From the IMG/VR virus record IMGVR_UViG_2529292734_000006: 21,898 bases of DNA; one strand, given 5' to 3'. A program made the translations under genes and the position numbers. The notes below the pieces were generated by a model. It made no database searches. It saw nothing but the letters and a program-made list of their open reading frames with translations, and had not been told where the DNA came from. Numbering within the stretch: position 1 is the first letter of the stretch; the number at the start of each line of letters is the position of its first letter. This document shows, one piece after another, positions 4,166 through 11,851 of this stretch. The DNA is from a virus (lineage: Duplodnaviria; Heunggongvirae; Uroviricota; Caudoviricetes).

Positions 4166-4334
4166 TTTGATTCTAATGCATTGATAATAAATGATAATCA
4201 TCTTTATCTGTTTGTGTGAAATTTAGACCGTCGTATGTTGATTATTGCGATGTTTCATCTTATCTTTTATACGTTTGCTCCATATAATTGACACTACTGT
4301 GTACCAGGACAGTCATAACAGACTAAAAGAGGAA

Positions 4335-4511: not shown

Positions 4512-4806
4512 CATGTTTATAGTATTAGCATCAATTTCTCATCAGATGCTATTCAACAATACAAATTACCCATAAACCTCGTTTTTACGGGGTTTTGTTA
4601 TATTTAAACATTACTGAATAGATATAAATCTCGATTGTCGATGGTATTGGTTGTGTGACAATACCTAGTCTTTCCGGTATGCCTGAAGAGAATACAAACG
4701 ACAGATTATGTAAGGGAAACGCGCTGAAACTTTCACTCTTTCATGCTGAGTGATTTGACGTTATATTTTTAGCCGCAAGTGAAGAGCAAACGAATGGAGC
4801 GACAAA

Positions 4807-5013
4807 ATGCATAAAGATCAATACACTGATGCCCCCTCCCAGGAGCAGGTTCGTGTAAAAACTATGCTTAATAGCACCATTTCGATGGGTTACCCGGATG
4901 TTGTAATTGCATGTATAGAACATCAAGTATCTCTGGAAGCATTCAGGGCAATTGAGGCCGCGTTAGTAAAGCACGATAAGAATACGAAGGATTATTCCCT
5001 GGTGGTTGACTGA
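4807..5013 (+). CDS. Hypothetical small protein (68 aa), unknown function
   Basis: ORF with GGAG 7 nt upstream of the ATG; no recognisable motif. The overlapping antisense ORF 4741..4926 lacks a ribosome-binding site. Confidence 0.35.
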
Positions 5014-5376
5014 TCACCATAACTGCTAACCATTCTGACCATTTCACAAGTGACAGAGTCAATATCGTATTCTGTCACTGTAAGGCTAATACAGTACTGC
5101 AATTCAACTACAGCAATGCCTCGTATTTAGGTGAATTTACAATATCGTCCAGTTCGGATGCCGGCTGCATTTCTGAAGATAAGGCATTTCGGTTCGCGTA
5201 TTTTCCCCTCATGCTCGTCAGTCCTGCGCGTAGTAAGAAACAGGACACTCACACTAATTTGTGTGGGCATGCTGTGATGTCCTTCTGAATTATCCCCATG
5301 CCATTATGTAACGCTCTGTTTCAGATGCTCGTCACGGTTGTCAGGCTGTCGGGTCCTCCCAGTGGGGGTCCCTGCC

Positions 5377-5396
5377 ACGGGGCGGGAGCGTCGCGG
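5377..5396. other. Candidate cos site (cosN-like) of the phage
   Basis: ACGGGGCGGGAGCGTCGCGG lies about 190 bp upstream of the terminase small subunit start. It resembles the lambda cosN region as I recall it (ACGGGGCGGCGACCTCGCGG, cohesive end GGGCGGCGACCT), and lambda cosN is about 190 bp upstream of Nu1. It is a GC-rich island in AT-rich DNA. Confidence 0.45.
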
Positions 5397-5436
5397 AAAA
5401 AGGCTAGTTTTTGAAATTTCATCCGTCATCACCACT

Positions 5437-5460
5437 ACTGTAATAGATTGATATTACAGT
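5437..5460. promoter_or_regulatory. Perfect 9-bp inverted repeat (ACTGTAATA-N6-TATTACAGT) with overlapping IHF-consensus match, between the candidate cos site and terS; possible cosB-like terminase/IHF binding site
   Basis: Palindrome at 5437-5445 and 5452-5460, followed by a T-rich tract. TAATAGATTGATA (5441-5453) fits the IHF consensus YAAnnnnTTGATW. Confidence 0.3.
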
Positions 5461-5565
5461 ATTTTTATTTTTGTGGTGTCGATTTTGATTGTTTTTTGTT
5501 CATCACTAACACCGTTTGCCTAAAGTCGTTCGCAAGATGCATGTTTAAAACATTCTGGAGCGGGT

Positions 5566-6060
5566 ATGGATCGAGAGTTAAAAAATCTGACGCTGAATAT
5601 CAGTCAATTGGCGGCACTGTCAGGTGTACATCGCCAGACTGCTGCGGCAAGGCTGCAAAATCTACCCGTTGCAGGGGGGCATGAAAGCAACCTCAAGCTT
5701 TATCGGGTGGTTGATATTGTGTCGGCATTTCTGGCATTACCACCGCCGGTTGCAGAAGGCGAAATGGACGCACATGAGCGCAAAGCCTGGTATCAGTCTG
5801 AACGTGAGCGTCTTAAGTTCGAACAGGAAACGGCACAACTCATTCCGGCCAGTGATGTCAGACGGGAGTTTGCCATCTGGGCAAAAGCGGTCGTGCAGGT
5901 GCTGGAGACATTACCGGATATTCTTGAACGTGACTGCGGTCTGCAGCCTGCCGCTGTGAGCCGTGTTCAGTCCATTATTGATGATCTGCGCGATCAGGTA
6001 GCCCTGCGGGTGACTGAAGCAGGTGCGGATGATGAGGAGGAATTACAGCAGGAGGAGTAA
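5566..6060 (+). CDS. Terminase small subunit (Nu1-like, N-terminal HTH DNA-binding domain)
   Basis: 164 aa; GGAG ribosome-binding site; N-terminal HTH-like segment (LTLNISQLAALSGVHRQTAAARL); acidic C-terminus; stop overlaps the terminase large subunit start (TAATG). Confidence 0.8.
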   Translation: MDRELKNLTLNISQLAALSGVHRQTAAARLQNLPVAGGHESNLKLYRVVDIVSAFLALPPPVAEGEMDAHERKAWYQSERERLKFEQETAQLIPASDVRREFAIWAKAVVQVLETLPDILERDCGLQPAAVSRVQSIIDDLRDQVALRVTEAGADDEEELQQEE

Positions 6061-8162
6061 TGCTGAATCAGGAAACCGCAAAGGCAGCACGAACCGATTC
6101 AGGTTATATCCTTCGCGCACCGAGACGAATGCGGGTTGCTGATGCCGTTGCTCAGTATATGCGGGTGCCCATGGGGGCAGGGAACTCAGTCCCATGGGAT
6201 CCGCTGGTGGCACCGTATGTTATTGAGCCTATGAACTGCCTGGCCTCGCGTGAATACGACGCAGTGATATTTGTTGGCCCGGCACGAACCGGCAAGACTA
6301 TCGGCCTGATTGACGGCTGGGTGATTTACAACGTGATTTGCGATCCTGCTGATATGCTGATCATTCAGATGACGGAGGAAAAAGCCCGCGAACACTCCAA
6401 AAAACGACTCGCCAGAACGTTTCGCGTCAGCCCGGAAGTGGTCAGTCGCCTGAGTCCGAACAAAAATGACAACAACGTTTATGACAGAACATTCCTTGCT
6501 GGCAACTACCTGAAAATCGGCTGGCCGTCAGTCAATATCATGTCTTCATCAGATTATAAATGCGTGGCGCTGACGGATTATGACCGTTTTCCGGAAGATA
6601 TTGATGGTGAGGGGGATGCCTTCTCTCTTGCCTCAAAACGTACCACCACATTTATGTCCAGTGGTATGACGCTGGTGGAGAGTTCCCCCGGCAGGGATGT
6701 GAAGGATGTGAAATGGCGACGGACTTCACCGCATGAGGCTCCACCAACCACGGGGATCCTGTCGCTCTATAACCGTGGCGATCGCCGTCGCTGGTACTGG
6801 CCCTGTCCACACTGTGGTGAGTATTTTCAGCCCTGCGGCGATGTGGTTGCTGGTTTCCGTGATATTGCCGATCCTGTGCTGGCAAGTGAGGCGGCTTATA
6901 TTCAGTGTCCTTCCTGTTCAGGACGGATTTTGCCTGAACAAAAACGCGAGCTGAACGGACGTGGGGTCTGGTTACGGGATGGTGAATCCATCAATGCAGA
7001 TGGCAGTCGTTATGGTGATCCCCGGCGTTCACGTATTGCGTCATTCTGGATGGAGGGTCCGGCAGCTGCTTATCAGACACTCTCGCAACTCGTTTACAAA
7101 CTGCTTACTGCAGAACAGGAATACGAGACAACCGGAAGTGAAGAGACACTCAAGACGGTTATCAATACCGACTGGGGATTACCTTATCTTCCCCGCGCCA
7201 GCATGGAGCAACGAAAAAGTGAATTGCTTGAGCAGCGGGCAGAGCCAGTTCCTTCCCGCAGTGTGCCGGATGGCGTTAATTTCCTTGTGGCGACAGTGGA
7301 TGTGCAGGCGGGACGTCATCGCCGTTTTGTGGTTCAGGTAACGGGCTATGGCAGCCGTGGCGAACGCTGGATTATTGATCGTTACAACATCACGCAGTCA
7401 TTGCGCGGTGACAGCGACGGGGAGAGCCAGCGAATTGATCCGGCCAGCTATCCGGAAGACTGGGATGTCCTGCTGACGGATGTTTTTCATAAAAGCTGGC
7501 CGCTGGCCTCCGACCCTTCTCAACAAATGCGACTGATGGCAATGGCGGTGGACTCCGGCGGTGAAGACGGGGTCACTGATAATGCCTATAAATTCTGGCG
7601 TCGTTGCCGTCGTGATGGCCTTGGTAAACGTATTTACCTGTTTAAGGGCGACAGCATCCGGCGAGCAAAACTGATCACCCGTACATTCCCTGATAACACC
7701 GGACGAACGGGCCGACGGGCGCAGGCCGCAGGTGATGTGCCGCTCTGGCTTCTTCAGACGGATGCCCTGAAAGACCGGGTGAATAACGCGTTATGGCGTG
7801 ACTCGCTAGGTCCCGGCTATGTGCATTTCCCTGACTGGCTGGGGAGCTGGTTTTACGACGAACTGACGTATGAAGAGCGGAGCAGTGACGGGAAATGGAG
7901 TAAGCCGGGTCGCGGTGCCAACGAAGCTTTTGACCTGATGGTGTATGCCGAGGCTCTGGTCATTCTGCATGGATACGAAAAGATCCGCTGGCCGGATGCA
8001 CCGGAGTGGGCGAGCCGGGAAACCTGGCTGGAGTGTGTCCCGGACAGTACCGAACCGTCACCCTCACCGGAACCGGTACCCACGCCTGTTAAAAAACAAA
8101 AACGGAAGAAAACAGTAACTGACGATGTTAACCCCTGGCTGACTTCCGGAGGATGGTTATGA
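6060..8162 (+). CDS. Terminase large subunit (lambda gpA-like; ATPase and endonuclease)
   Basis: 700 aa. Walker A-like FVGPARTGKT; Zn-finger-like CPHCGEYF...CPSCSG resembling the lambda gpA CPHCGE motif; position after the small subunit. Confidence 0.9.
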   Translation: MLNQETAKAARTDSGYILRAPRRMRVADAVAQYMRVPMGAGNSVPWDPLVAPYVIEPMNCLASREYDAVIFVGPARTGKTIGLIDGWVIYNVICDPADMLIIQMTEEKAREHSKKRLARTFRVSPEVVSRLSPNKNDNNVYDRTFLAGNYLKIGWPSVNIMSSSDYKCVALTDYDRFPEDIDGEGDAFSLASKRTTTFMSSGMTLVESSPGRDVKDVKWRRTSPHEAPPTTGILSLYNRGDRRRWYWPCPHCGEYFQPCGDVVAGFRDIADPVLASEAAYIQCPSCSGRILPEQKRELNGRGVWLRDGESINADGSRYGDPRRSRIASFWMEGPAAAYQTLSQLVYKLLTAEQEYETTGSEETLKTVINTDWGLPYLPRASMEQRKSELLEQRAEPVPSRSVPDGVNFLVATVDVQAGRHRRFVVQVTGYGSRGERWIIDRYNITQSLRGDSDGESQRIDPASYPEDWDVLLTDVFHKSWPLASDPSQQMRLMAMAVDSGGEDGVTDNAYKFWRRCRRDGLGKRIYLFKGDSIRRAKLITRTFPDNTGRTGRRAQAAGDVPLWLLQTDALKDRVNNALWRDSLGPGYVHFPDWLGSWFYDELTYEERSSDGKWSKPGRGANEAFDLMVYAEALVILHGYEKIRWPDAPEWASRETWLECVPDSTEPSPSPEPVPTPVKKQKRKKTVTDDVNPWLTSGGWL

Positions 8163-8371: not shown

Positions 8372-9879
8372 TGGCAATTCTTGATGATGTGATTGGCGTT
8401 TTTTCACCAGGATGGAAAGCGGCAAGGCTGCGTTCCCGTGCGGTGATCCAGGCTTATGAGGCCGTAAAAACGACGCGGACACACAAAGCCCGACGGGAGA
8501 ACCGAACTGCCGACCAGTTAAGCCAGTACGGGGCCGTGTCGTTACGTGAGCAGGCTCGTTACCTTGATAACAACCACGATCTGGTCATTGGTGTATTTGA
8601 CAAGCTGGAAGAACGGGTGGTGGGGAAAAACGGGATTATTGTCGAGCCACATCCGGTATTACGCAATGGGGCCATTGCCCGTGATCTGGCAGCGGAGATA
8701 CGTACCCGATGGAGTGAATGGTCTGTCAGTCCGGAGGTCACCGGGCAGTTTACCCGTCCGATGCTGGAACGTCTGATGCTGCGTACCTGGCTGCGCGATG
8801 GTGAGGTGTTTGCCCAGATGGTTTCCGGGCGCATAAACAGCCTGACGCCTTCTGCCGGTGTTCATTTCTGGCTGGAGGCGCTTGAGCCGGACTTTATTCC
8901 CATGACCAGTGATGAGAGCAACAGGCTGAATCAGGGCGTGTTTGTTGATGACTGGGGGCGTCCCGAAAAATATCTGGTGTATAAAAGCCGTCCCGTATCC
9001 GGGCGGCAGATGGAAACCAAAGAAGTGGATGCAGAGCGAATGCTGCATCTTAAATTTGTTCGCCGTCTGCACCAGATGCGCGGGACGTCTTTGTTGTCCG
9101 GTGTGCTGATCCGCCTCAGTGCTCTGAAAGAGTATGAAGATTCTGAGCTGACTGCAGCAAGGATCGCCGCTGCTCTGGGGATGTACATCCGGAAAGGCGA
9201 CGGACAGAGCTATGAAACGGATGGTAATGACAGCAAGGAGAATGAACGCGAGCTTACCATTCAGCCAGGCATTATTTACGACGATCTGAAACCCGGCGAA
9301 GAAATCGGAATGGTGAAGTCGGATCGCCCCAATCCTAACCTTGAAACTTTTCGTAATGGTCAGTTGCGTGCCGTGGCTGCGGGCAGTCGTCTGAGTTTTT
9401 CCAGTACAGCGCGCAACTATAACGGCACTTACAGCGCCCAGCGTCAGGAGCTGGTTGAATCTACTGATGGCTACCTGATCCTGCAGGACTGGTTTATTGG
9501 TGCCGTCACCCGCCCGATGTACCGTGCCTGGCTGAAACAGGCTGTGGTATCCGGTGTTATCAGGCTACCCCGCGATCTGGACCGATCTTCACTGTATACC
9601 GCGGTGTATTCCGGACCGGTGATGCCGTGGATTGACCCTGTTAAGGAGGCTGAGGCCTGGAAAATTCAGATTCGTGGTGGAGCGGCGACAGAATCAGACT
9701 GGGTACGTGCAGGTGGTCGTAATCCAGATGATGTCAAACGTCGGCGCAAGGCCGAAATTGATGAAAACCGCAAGCTGGATCTGGTATTTGATACCGATCC
9801 GGCCAGTGATAAAGGAGGCAGCAGTGCCGCAACGAAACGACAGGAGCCGCAGCACACCGACGACCAGTCCGAAGAATAA
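8371..9879 (+). CDS. Portal protein (lambda gpB-like)
   Basis: 502 aa from the ATG that overlaps the gpW stop (TGATG); position and size typical of lambda-family portal proteins. The 526-aa track ORF starts upstream inside gpW. Confidence 0.85.
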   Translation: MAILDDVIGVFSPGWKAARLRSRAVIQAYEAVKTTRTHKARRENRTADQLSQYGAVSLREQARYLDNNHDLVIGVFDKLEERVVGKNGIIVEPHPVLRNGAIARDLAAEIRTRWSEWSVSPEVTGQFTRPMLERLMLRTWLRDGEVFAQMVSGRINSLTPSAGVHFWLEALEPDFIPMTSDESNRLNQGVFVDDWGRPEKYLVYKSRPVSGRQMETKEVDAERMLHLKFVRRLHQMRGTSLLSGVLIRLSALKEYEDSELTAARIAAALGMYIRKGDGQSYETDGNDSKENERELTIQPGIIYDDLKPGEEIGMVKSDRPNPNLETFRNGQLRAVAAGSRLSFSSTARNYNGTYSAQRQELVESTDGYLILQDWFIGAVTRPMYRAWLKQAVVSGVIRLPRDLDRSSLYTAVYSGPVMPWIDPVKEAEAWKIQIRGGAATESDWVRAGGRNPDDVKRRRKAEIDENRKLDLVFDTDPASDKGGSSAATKRQEPQHTDDQSEE

Positions 9880-9892
9880 TTCTTGGTTCAGG

Positions 9893-11851
9893 ATGCAGGC
9901 AGGTCACCAGAGTGACGCGGATATTTATATTTATGACGAGATTGGTTTCTGGGGTGTTACGGCGAAGCAGTTTATCAGTGATCTGAATGCACTGGGCGAT
10001 ATCACCCACATTAATCTCCATATTAATTCACCGGGTGGCGATGTCTTTGAAGGCATCGCCATTTTTAATGCACTGAAAACACATGGTGCGTCCATTACCG
10101 TTTATGTCGACGGTGTGGCGGCGTCAATGGCGTCGGTCATTGCGATGGTGGGAAACCCGGTCATTATGCCGGAAAACTCCTTCATGATGATTCATAAACC
10201 ATTTGGCTTTACGGGCGGTGATGCGGAGGACATGCGCACCTATGCCGACCTGCTCGATAAAGTTGAGGCGGTTCTGTTACCCGCTTATGCACAGAAAACC
10301 GGGAAAACCACCGATGAAATTGCTGCCATGCTGGCGGATGAGACCTGGATGTCCGGTGCCGAATGTCTGGCACAGGGATTTGCTGATCAGGTGACACCAG
10401 CCGTTAAGGCAATGGCATGTATTCAGTCAAAACGTACAGAGGAATTTAAAAAGATGCCGGAATCCATTCGAAATATGATTACTCCGCCACGCAACAGTGC
10501 TCCACGCGTACAGGATGATGGACCTGCAGCCTCCCGGACGCCAGTGCAGGCAGCAGCACCCGTGGTGGATGAAAACAGCATCCGTGCGCAGGTCCTGGCA
10601 GAGCAAAAAGCGCGTGTAAACGGTATTAATGATCTGTTTGCCATGTTTGGCGGGCGTTATCAGTCGTTGCAGGCTCAGTGTCTTGCCGATCCTGAATGTT
10701 CGCTGGAGCAGGCCCGCGAAAAGCTGTTGAACGAGATGGGGCGCGAGTCCACGCCATCCAATAAAAATACCCCGGCTCATATTTATGCCGGTAACGGTAA
10801 TTTTGTGGGGGACGGGATCCGCCAGGCGCTGATGGCGCGCGCCGGGTTTGAAAAAACTGAACGTGATAATGTCTACAACGGGATGACCCTGCGTGAATAT
10901 GCCCGTATGTCACTGACTGAACGTGGTATTGGTGTTTCCAGTTATAACCCGATGCAGATGGTCGGTGCGGCGTTCACACACAGTACGTCTGACTTCGGTA
11001 ATATTCTGCTGGATGTTGCGAACAAAGCCATTCTGCAGGGCTGGGAAGATGCCCCTGAAACCTATGAACAGTGGACGCGGAAAGGTCAGTTGTCTGATTT
11101 TAAAATTGCCCATCGTGTGGGTATGGGGGGCTTCAGTGCTCTGCGTCAGGTGCGTGAAGGGGCAGAATATAAATACGTCACCACCGGAGATAAACAGGCC
11201 ACTATTGCACTGGCGACCTATGGCGAGCTGTTCAGTATCACCCGTCAGGCCATTATCAATGATGATCTGAATATGCTGACCGATGTCCCGATGAAGCTGG
11301 GCCGTGCGGCGAAATCCACTATTGCCGATCTGGTTTATGCCATTCTGACGTCTAACCCGAAAATCTCCACAGATAATGTAAGTCTGTTCGATAAAGCGAA
11401 ACATGCAAACGTACTGGAGAGCGCGGCAATGGACGTGGCATCGCTGGATAAAGCCCGCCAGTTGATGCGCGTTCAGAAAGAGGGTGAGCGTCATCTGAAT
11501 ATTCGTCCTGCGTTCGTACTGGTACCGACGGCGATGGAGTCTGTTGCTAACCAGGTCATTCGCTCCTCAAGTGTCAAGGGGGCTGACATTAACGCCGGTA
11601 TTATTAACCCGGTGAAAGATTTTGCGACCGTTATTGCAGAGCCTCGTCTTGATGATAACAGCCAGACCACCTTCTACCTGGCTGCGTCCAAAGGCTCCGA
11701 TACGATTGAAGTGGCTTATCTCAACGGTGTGGATACGCCATATATTGATCAGATGGAGGGCTTCAGTGTGGATGGCGTGACAACGAAAGTGCGTATTGAC
11801 GCTGGTGTTGCGCCAGTTGATCACCGCGGCCTGGTGAAATGTACGGCGTAA
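9893..11851 (+). CDS. Fused prohead protease (ClpP/S14-like), scaffold and HK97-fold major capsid protein
   Basis: Single open frame of about 652 aa. N-terminal ClpP-like domain (YIYDEIG...INSPGGDVFEG...GVAASMASVIA...MMIHKP), a Pro/Ala-rich linker with coiled-coil-like region, and a C-terminal capsid domain of about 300 aa. The start at ATG 9893 is chosen just after the portal stop; the longer track ORF (9632) would overlap the portal by 250 bp. Confidence 0.8.
   Translation: MQAGHQSDADIYIYDEIGFWGVTAKQFISDLNALGDITHINLHINSPGGDVFEGIAIFNALKTHGASITVYVDGVAASMASVIAMVGNPVIMPENSFMMIHKPFGFTGGDAEDMRTYADLLDKVEAVLLPAYAQKTGKTTDEIAAMLADETWMSGAECLAQGFADQVTPAVKAMACIQSKRTEEFKKMPESIRNMITPPRNSAPRVQDDGPAASRTPVQAAAPVVDENSIRAQVLAEQKARVNGINDLFAMFGGRYQSLQAQCLADPECSLEQAREKLLNEMGRESTPSNKNTPAHIYAGNGNFVGDGIRQALMARAGFEKTERDNVYNGMTLREYARMSLTERGIGVSSYNPMQMVGAAFTHSTSDFGNILLDVANKAILQGWEDAPETYEQWTRKGQLSDFKIAHRVGMGGFSALRQVREGAEYKYVTTGDKQATIALATYGELFSITRQAIINDDLNMLTDVPMKLGRAAKSTIADLVYAILTSNPKISTDNVSLFDKAKHANVLESAAMDVASLDKARQLMRVQKEGERHLNIRPAFVLVPTAMESVANQVIRSSSVKGADINAGIINPVKDFATVIAEPRLDDNSQTTFYLAASKGSDTIEVAYLNGVDTPYIDQMEGFSVDGVTTKVRIDAGVAPVDHRGLVKCTA

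Follow-up and report, generated by a model that had tools for sequence, protein, structure and literature searches.

A probable lambda-type cos site upstream of the terminase genes of an mEp460/ev081-type E. coli prophage

The non-coding region upstream of terS

Is the non-coding region that precedes the terminase genes of a lambdoid prophage its cos, and where would the ends of the virion DNA then lie? The DNA analysed here (the window, a stretch of 21,898 nucleotides from the IMG/VR virus record IMGVR_UViG_2529292734_000006) is the late region of such a prophage, with the gene order lysozyme, Rz-like gene, ybcW-like small ORF (4807-5013), non-coding region, terS, terL, lambda-family portal and an ORF for a fused ClpP protease-capsid protein. 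The last four are full length and gave strong family matches. The candidate cos region that the initial annotation had placed in the non-coding part was borne out, since the hallmarks of a lambda-type cos are present there at the right spacing. With a rough probability of 0.88, we consider positions 5351-5506 to be the functional cos of a lambda-like (mEp460/ev081-type) E. coli prophage, with the subsites described below (phage coordinates, given as bp, count 5380 as bp 1). This reading draws on what we observed directly, namely the sequence elements, their spacing, their pattern of conservation, the protein families encoded alongside and deposited phage genomes that open exactly at the site. 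The cos of the window is an ordinary, previously unannotated example of the well-studied lambda-type cos family.

The leftmost element is a cosQ heptamer, GGGTCCT, at 5351-5357 on the plus strand, identical to that of lambda at 7/7 positions and located, as the putative packaging-termination element, 22 nt before the predicted top-strand nick; a cosQ heptamer about 23 bp before the nick is a mark of lambda-like cos sites, and in lambda itself it lies at 48473-48479, 23 nt before the nick, the right end reading ...tacGGGTCCTttccggtgatccgacaggttacg. The mean minor-allele count was 0.57 in cosQ, compared with 4.9 in the spacer and 15 further upstream. The initial annotation had overlooked cosQ though it lies inside the interval proposed there, and the TerS-binding repeats were not identified in it either. 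The predicted cosN, CG/GGGCGGGAGCGT/CG, spans 5378-5393 on both strands, with predicted nicks at 5379/5380 (top) and 5391/5392 (bottom). The GC island that had been likened to lambda cosN is indeed close to it, the 20-mer ACGGGGCGGGAGCGTCGCGG (5377-5396) matching lambda ACGGGGCGGCGACCTCGCGG at 16/20 positions. CG dinucleotides flank both predicted nicks, as they do in lambda, Gifsy-1 and mEp213, and the two-fold rotational symmetry is partial (8/16, compared with 10/16 in lambda and Gifsy-1). The terS ATG at 5566 corresponds to bp 187 and the start of lambda Nu1 to bp 191, in agreement with the earlier statement that the distance to terS is as in lambda.

Three properties place this layout beyond chance: a single copy of the combined motif GGGTCCT-N18-27-CGGGGCGG is present in the window (0.00 expected; none in 100 shuffles), the GC content drops from 0.72-0.75 at 5340-5399 to 0.225 at 5440-5499, and a hairpin in the latter part folds better than shuffled sequences (see below).

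Immediately to the right of the cos lie genes for a Nu1-type TerS and a gpA-family TerL, as in lambda-like cos phages. The 164-aa product of terS (5566-6060, plus strand) matched Pfam DUF1441 (E = 3.6e-41), PHROG 141 'terminase small subunit' (E = 2e-73) and, over nearly its full length, PHROG 57 (E = 1.3e-9). Lambda Nu1 gave the reverse pattern (PHROG 57 at 1e-76, PHROG 141 at 5.6e-8), and because of these reciprocal profile matches the DUF1441 protein is assigned as the small terminase, a remote relative of gpNu1. A direct hhalign comparison of TerS and Nu1 was colinear but weak (E = 0.0056, probability 6.5%), the structure modelled from the single sequence (mean pLDDT 55) was too low in confidence for assessing a winged helix, and a search of PDB sequences with the single sequence and with a profile gave no significant match. 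NCBIfam holds no model for TerS or TerL. The TerS segment that aligned with the helix-turn-helix of Nu1 (LNISQLAALSGVHRQTAAARL) has an HRQT core; relatives with the repeat core described below retain it, and cdtI has HRDT instead. The TerS proteins of mEp460, Ayreon and phi458 are about 99% identical to that of the window. The 700-aa product of terL (6060-8162, plus strand) belongs to PHROG 15, terminase large subunit, and matched Pfam GpA_ATPase (E = 1.7e-71) and GpA_nuclease (E = 6.2e-85); by these family matches to lambda gpA, it would be the enzyme that nicks cosN.

In RefSeq annotation of this group the small terminase appears only as 'DUF1441 family protein' and the cos is unannotated. 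A full-text literature search with the string GGGCGGGAGCGT returned a single, unrelated paper on a mammalian promoter, a search on Ev081 returned nothing about packaging, and we found no description of the mEp460-type cosB in the searchable literature.

A shared cassette, candidate cosB repeats and a putative IHF site

For a phylogenetic footprint we collected exact matches to the 21-mer that spans the nick, 123 in number and oriented alike; they came mostly from IMG/VR, and most of those were prophages in isolate genomes. Downstream, bp 1-34 were identical in all 123 occurrences compared, of which only bp 18-34 count, as bp -4 to 17 (cosN) were fixed by the search pattern and their invariance is uninformative. 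Upstream, the 44 distinct 60-nt contexts were alike from GGGTCCT onward and had nothing in common to its left, at least five unrelated sequences lying left of cosQ. From bp 35 onward the occurrences divided into four or more cosB types that are unrelated to one another, each paired with a terS of its own: type A, which is that of the window (57 occurrences), the type of cdtI and Tritos (43), that of PhiR40_1 (17) and a singleton. The shared bp 1-34, with unrelated cosB and terS sequences beyond, indicate that the cos is a mosaic made up of a common cosQ-cosN-spacer cassette and exchangeable recognition modules. Comparable cos mosaicism has been published for lambda versus phage 21 or N15 (PMC4669245).

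Right of cosN, at 5397-5419 on the plus strand, lies an I2-like spacer, AAAAAGGCTAGTTTTTGAAATTT, with A5 and T5 tracts 11 bp apart followed by A3T3. Its position is that of lambda I2 (bp 18-50), a static bend (PMC4856287), and with its similarly phased A/T tracts it is probably a static bend too. Among 50 distinct type-A sequences bp 18-34 showed a single change, and they were identical across all four cosB types.

Beyond the spacer, the cosB of the window holds three copies of the motif kTCrwCAC in + - + orientation, with an IHF consensus between the first two. The first copy, an R3-like candidate TerS-binding repeat, GTCATCAC, lies at 5425-5432 on the plus strand (bp 46-53) within the conserved block 5424-5435, a place that corresponds to lambda R3 (bp 50-65; PMC9026076); it showed a mean of 0.25 minor alleles in the 50 type-A sequences and lies inside a CAyCA block conserved in five cosB relatives. 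The second, an R2-like candidate, is inverted: it lies at 5476-5483 on the minus strand (top strand GTGTCGAT, reverse complement ATCGACAC), has the same mean of 0.25 minor alleles and falls in a TGTCGA block conserved in relatives, the preceding 4 nt varying freely. The third, an R1-like candidate, TTCATCAC, lies at 5499-5506 on the plus strand just after a conserved TGTTTTTTG, with 1.4 minor alleles per column, in a GTTCAnCA block conserved in five relatives. The linkers between the cosB elements carry 2.5-3.8 minor alleles per column. CACCAC (5430-5435) and GTGGTG (5473-5478) were also considered as inverted R arms and dropped, since the GTGG part varies freely and GTGTCGAT is fixed.

Three TCRWCAC matches in 81 bp compare with about 0.05 expected from the window-wide rate, for a motif defined after seeing the data; over the whole window the motif is not enriched (16 matches, 13.4 expected). 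In an alignment of five related cos regions, whose TerS proteins are 57-100% identical, conservation was concentrated in cosQ, cosN (left half), CGCGG, the A5/T5 tracts, CAyCA, TTGA(T), TGTCGA and TGTTTTTTGTTCAnCA.

The cosB plan of lambda-like phages is R3-I1-R2-R1 with R2 inverted (PMC4669245, PMC9026076), and the order found here, repeat (+), IHF, repeat (-), repeat (+), would by its sequence correspond to the plan of lambda, phi80, 21 and Gifsy-1 (PMC9026076): an exact IHF consensus is accompanied by the 8-mers GTCATCAC, ATCGACAC (inverted) and TTCATCAC in conserved blocks, the motif having been chosen post hoc. On the strand that carries it in lambda too, the IHF consensus has one direct candidate repeat before it and an inverted and a further direct one after it, an arrangement like that of lambda; the two phages also share cosQ, bp 1-6 of the end, the CG flanks, the A/T-tract spacer, a gpA-family TerL and the portal family. 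They differ in that the kTCrwCAC repeat is unrelated to the lambda repeat, the IHF core is about 17 bp and R1 about 30 bp closer to cosN, TerS is of the DUF1441 family, and the head genes belong to the Gifsy-2 type and include a fused ClpP protease-capsid ORF.

Two other groups help to place this cosB. In mEp213/LLS, whose TerS belongs to the same family (57-58% identical), cosQ is likewise 22 nt from the nick and the blocks follow the same order (CATCATC, which is R3-like, then the core TTGAT, then TGTCGA); there are, however, 5 differences in the cohesive end, and a shorter cosB places the terS ATG at bp 130. The cdtI/Tritos group shares cosQ, cosN and bp 1-33 (cdtI) or 1-34 (Tritos) with the window and differs in cosB from about bp 35 and in TerS, which is also a DUF1441 protein and is 41.7% identical. 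No R sites were assignable by eye in the cdtI/Tritos-type cosB. This divergence of cosB and TerS predicts a packaging specificity unlike that of the window.

The putative IHF site (I1-like) is an exact match to WATCAANNNNTTR at 5441-5453 on the minus strand (TATCAATCTATTA), the same strand as the best I1 match of lambda (bp 79-91), with a T-rich tract at 5462-5472 on its 5' side in the minus-strand reading. An IHF consensus overlapping an inverted repeat was thus rightly noticed at the outset; exact matches number 2 in the 21.9-kb window, where 0.62 were expected. In the 50 type-A sequences TAA and TTGAT were invariant and the four N positions varied more than any others in the cos (mean 11.25 of 50), a variability accounted for by the consensus YAANNNNTTGATW, which predicts exactly that pattern. 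A TTGAT/TTGAA core is kept at the same place in all cosB types.

Around the IHF core of the window lies a perfect 10-bp palindrome, TACTGTAATA-GATTGA-TATTACAGTA, at 5436-5461 on both strands, with 100% complementary arms (5436-5445 and 5452-5461) and a 6-nt loop. The initial annotation had described it as a 9-bp inverted repeat (5437-5460) about 45 bp downstream of the GC island; the repeat is real and perfect, but it is 10 bp long and starts 40 nt past 5396. Its hairpin was better than all of 200 shuffles (z = -3.9 as RNA, -4.5 as DNA). Of 40 distinct type-A sequences, 36-40 form Watson-Crick pairs throughout the 7-bp core CTGTAAT/ATTACAG; this pairing is kept because both arms are conserved and not by compensatory change, no convincing case of which was found among the 40. 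The innermost pair is A-T in only 15/40, and the outermost, which is mostly T-G, is Watson-Crick in 15/40. The palindrome was absent from all other cosB regions examined (types B, C and D, CP-1639 and mEp213). Of its proposed standing as a feature of cosB, what holds is therefore the IHF core TTGAT together with the R-type repeats, shared across cosB types, and not the palindrome, absent from the sister types, which we read, from this distribution, as a lineage-specific elaboration of the IHF site rather than a defining cosB element.

The palindrome and the T-run after it could instead act mainly as an RNA hairpin that terminates transcription, or be bound by some other dimeric protein, and not act as part of the IHF site. 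As a terminator, the palindrome would insulate the terminase genes from upstream read-through in the lysogen, and in a RefSeq genome identical over 5200-5600 the genes annotated upstream of the cos are cspI, ymcF, ynfN and gnsB, relatives of which are highly expressed in a Tritos lysogen (PMC9928086). The RNA hairpin, fairly stable at -10.6 kcal/mol, is followed by the U-rich UAUUUUUAUUUUU, yet its stem has only 2 G-C pairs, and a terminator scan of 4700-6100 returned no terminator, the palindrome included. Arm substitutions in relatives mostly keep G-U pairing (40 G-U cells versus 27 mismatches); against this, the evidence for compensatory change is unconvincing, the variation fits YAANNNNTTGATW exactly, and the other cosB types, which lack the palindrome, all keep the IHF core in place. 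A main role outside the IHF site is thus rather improbable. The roles as part of the IHF site and as a terminator are not mutually exclusive, and a weak terminator role may be secondary.

The predicted cohesive end and the ends of deposited genomes

The predicted 12-nt 5' cohesive end, GGGCGGGAGCGT (5380-5391, plus strand), would be the left end of the virion DNA. Lambda-like cos phages have 12-base 5' ends related to that of lambda, in which bp 7-12 vary and cosQ and the CG flanks do not (PMC4669245). The core GGGCGGGAGCGT agrees with this definition: it is identical to lambda GGGCGGCGACCT at 8/12 positions, including bp 1-6, with differences at bp 7, 8, 9 and 11. It differs from mEp460 GGGCGGGAGCGG at bp 12 only (11/12) and from Gifsy-1 GGGCGGCAGCGT at bp 7 only (11/12). 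The likeness to the lambda end that had been pointed out at first is therefore present, but the nearest relative is Gifsy-1 and not lambda.

Gifsy-1, a Salmonella phage, is counted among the lambda-like cos phages (PMC4669245, PMC4856287, PMC9026076) and, according to published work, departs from lambda at bp 8, 9 and 11 (PMC4669245). In its sequence we confirmed GGGTCCT, the 23-nt distance and ACG/GGGCGGCAGCGT/CGCAGG. Apart from bp 7 (C, compared with G in the window), Gifsy-1 differs from the window by a true Nu1-family TerS (PHROG 57, E = 3e-58), by lambda/21-type head genes and by another cosB.

Deposited genomes bear on the position of the predicted nick. The records of cdtI (AB285204) and Tritos (OV696610) start with GGGCGGGAGCGTCGCGG / GGGCGGGAGCGTCGCGGAAAAAGG and end with ...CCTGCCACG (...CCACG), both opening precisely where the nick is predicted; the cdtI record has its position 1 at 5380 of the window, its first bases are GGGCGGGAGCGTCGCGGAAAAAGGCTAGTTTTT and its last bases ...GGGTCCTTCCGGTGGGGTGGCCTGCCACG, and the same was found for Tritos. 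The cohesive end predicted in the initial annotation is thus matched by two records that open with GGGCGGGAGCGT and close with ...CCACG, its length of 12 nt being deduced from the flanks. Both start points may themselves be their depositors' deduction from lambda, because cdtI was deposited with a circular label and the Tritos record describes a prophage annotated anew (PMC9928086), for which the LF82/Tritos paper reports no end mapping (PMC9928086).

Two further records, both assembled from virion DNA, carry anomalies at this point, inside cosN. Ayreon, with a TerS 99.4% identical to that of the window, is a plaque-forming phage isolated on E. coli K-12; its authors did not place the cos, and their genome begins at terS (PMC5764929). 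Its record follows the window up to bp 3 (5382) and again exactly from bp 13 (5392), bp 4-12 being replaced by an insert of about 77 nt from a Q antiterminator gene and 72 nt from terS, both fragments being second copies within the same record. This insert is most simply read as a chimera with which the assembler bridged physical DNA ends. The record of mEp460_4F5 (TerS about 99% identical) opens 5 nt ahead of the nick and is missing 3 nt, bp 12-14; this deletion was found in 0 IMG/VR contigs, compared with more than 120 contigs that have the full sequence. Both anomalies fit a discontinuity in the packaged DNA inside cosN, and neither is proof of it.

The overhang is probably exactly the 12-nt GGGCGGGAGCGT. 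Another length, for example 9-11 nt through a different bottom-strand nick in an otherwise genuine cos, would be in line with the 9-nt 5' cohesive ends measured for Cr-LKS3 (PMC9303873), whose TerS is related (40% identical), with the 10 and 11 nt that separate the conserved flanks in CP-1639 and VT1-Sakai, where the window has 12, and with the 3 nt missing from mEp460_4F5; moreover, the record ends imply the top-strand nick only. That 3-nt deletion, however, is unique to one record, homology with Ayreon starts again precisely at bp 13, the bottom-strand context CCGCG^A is the same as lambda's, and the right flank CGCGG is separated by exactly 12 nt from the top nick, a distance also seen in lambda, Gifsy-1, mEp213 and Fels-1. 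We thus find a different overhang unlikely in the window. Across the wider family the length may not be fixed, because of the spacings in CP-1639 and VT1-Sakai; for mEp213/LLS, a 12-nt end, GGGCGGCGCGCT, has been deduced (PMC12315714).

Likely use of the site and exchange of recognition modules

Many E. coli prophages are cryptic, and the site could be a genuine cos by descent that is now an unused relic of a defective prophage. The interval 5200-5600 was matched in 2111 of 5426 complete E. coli genomes, most such prophages have never been shown to yield virions, and the window alone gives no sign of activity. The relic reading is nevertheless hard to reconcile with the state of the locus, in which terS, terL, the portal gene and the protease-capsid ORF are full length and all subsites are intact and invariant among relatives, with a cos and terS region 100% identical to the deposited phage genome mEp460_ev081 and a TerS about 99% identical to that of the plaque-forming Ayreon (PMC5764929). 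It appears doubtful on these grounds, and a functional cos is preferred. Headful (pac) packaging, with a merely coincidental resemblance to cosN, is extremely improbable, given a TerL of the gpA family, which is typical of phages with 5' cohesive ends, a discrete conserved cosQ-cosN block whose pattern had an expectation of 0.00, and conservation boundaries that coincide with the cos subsites; no observation in favour of a headful mechanism was found.

We infer the nick positions, the overhang length, the binding of IHF and TerS and the roles of the subsites from the comparison with lambda. By this analogy, TerS dimers would bind R3 (5425-5432) and the inverted R2 (5476-5483) on concatemeric DNA, a bend induced by IHF at I1 (5441-5453) would set R3 and R2 face to face, and R1 (5499-5506) would add further TerS binding. 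The TerS/IHF complex would anchor the gpA-family TerL on cosN, the A/T-tract segment 5397-5419 supplying an I2-type static bend. TerL would then nick the top strand at 5379/5380 and the bottom strand at 5391/5392, leaving the 12-nt 5' overhang GGGCGGGAGCGT, and packaging would proceed rightwards, terS end first, to stop at the next cos, where cosQ (5351-5357) and cosN would be needed for the terminal cut.

A bolder and improbable proposal joins the mosaic structure to the palindrome. It holds that an invariant cosQ-cosN-I2 cassette (to bp 34) is common to four or more different cosB/TerS specificity modules, which are exchanged at a sharply defined border, bp 34/35, so that co-resident prophages could end packaging on each other's cos and start it only on their own, and that in the mEp460 lineage I1 was remodelled into a perfect palindrome doubling as an RNA hairpin/U-tract terminator. 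If this were true, the palindrome-terminator would shield the terminase genes from read-through of upstream genes expressed in the lysogen.

The existing understanding of cos packaging is unchanged by this cos. Its value is practical: it would give the true genome ends of a very common E. coli prophage group and a testable map of TerS- and IHF-binding sites for a diverged terminase related to Nu1, and the assignment would explain the arbitrary opening and the artefacts at this point in deposited genomes (Ayreon, mEp460_4F5). The cosQ-cosN cassette already serves as the origin of two GenBank records.

Limits of the cos cassette and its small terminase

Positions in the cassette are counted from window 5380 (bp 1), the first base after the predicted top-strand nick, the predicted 12-nt cohesive end being bp 1–12. 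cosQ (5351–5357), cosN (5378–5393) and bp 1–34 were identical across more than 120 IMG/VR contigs. To the right of this cassette lies an abrupt mosaic boundary at window 5413/5414 (bp 34/35), and at least four unrelated cosB/terS modules start at bp 35 (IMG/VR loci L009–L128). On the left, unrelated upstream contexts become homologous exactly from cosQ (5351).

The small terminase encoded at 5566–6060 is labelled only 'DUF1441 family protein' in RefSeq and has no NCBIfam model; reciprocal PHROG hits tie it to lambda gpNu1. The TerS proteins of cyanophages Cr-LKS3 and Cy-LDV1, as well as those of Aeromonas and Vibrio phages, belong to the same family.

Variation within the predicted cohesive end

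The reference genome of mEp460 (JQ182728.1) reads GGGCGGGAGCGG, with a G at bp 12 where the window has a T, and Fels-1 carries the same G. This G/T difference, at the base adjoining the predicted bottom-strand nick, is natural variation. The mEp460_4F5 record (LR595868.1, 1–30 = window 5375–5400) begins 5 nt ahead of the predicted nick, and its cosN lacks 3 nt, reading GGGCGGGAGCG, the gap, then CGG. This 3-nt deletion was absent from all IMG/VR contigs. Either the assembly went wrong here in connection with the genome end, or the deletion is private to this record and would leave a shorter overhang.

Two further related phages differ in spacing. The conserved flanks, ACG on one side and CGCGGAAAAAGG on the other, should stand 12 nt apart, but enclose 10 nt in CP-1639 (GGGCGGGCGG(CG)) and 11 nt in VT1-Sakai (GGGCGGGCGGG(CG)). 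The overhang of these phages could differ in length, their cos could have decayed, or the G/C runs could have been misread during sequencing.

The Ayreon record

In the GenBank record of Ayreon (MF807953.1, 44306–44698 = window 5283–5530), bp 4–12 of the cohesive end are replaced by about 150 nt that duplicate sequence found elsewhere in the record: first a Q antiterminator fragment, then a terS fragment (= window 5899–5970). This filler looks like an assembly chimera joining the physical genome ends, and the CDS that runs across it (44298–44582, annotated 'putative late gene regulator') is probably spurious.

Other features of the window

Besides the IHF consensus inside cosB (5441–5453, minus strand), the window holds a single other exact match, TATCAATGCATTA (4174–4186, minus strand), between the lysis genes and cos. 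An inverted repeat, GTCCTG...CAGGAC, lies upstream of cosQ at 5222–5247 with no T-run after it; the right ends of Tritos (OV696610) and mEp460_4F5 are similar to the window over this stretch. Finally, in a 739-aa ORF (9632–11851), whose listed putative TTG start overlaps the portal ORF, a prohead protease domain of the ClpP type and a major capsid domain are joined in one protein, which is the head arrangement of Gifsy-2 type noted in PMC12315714.
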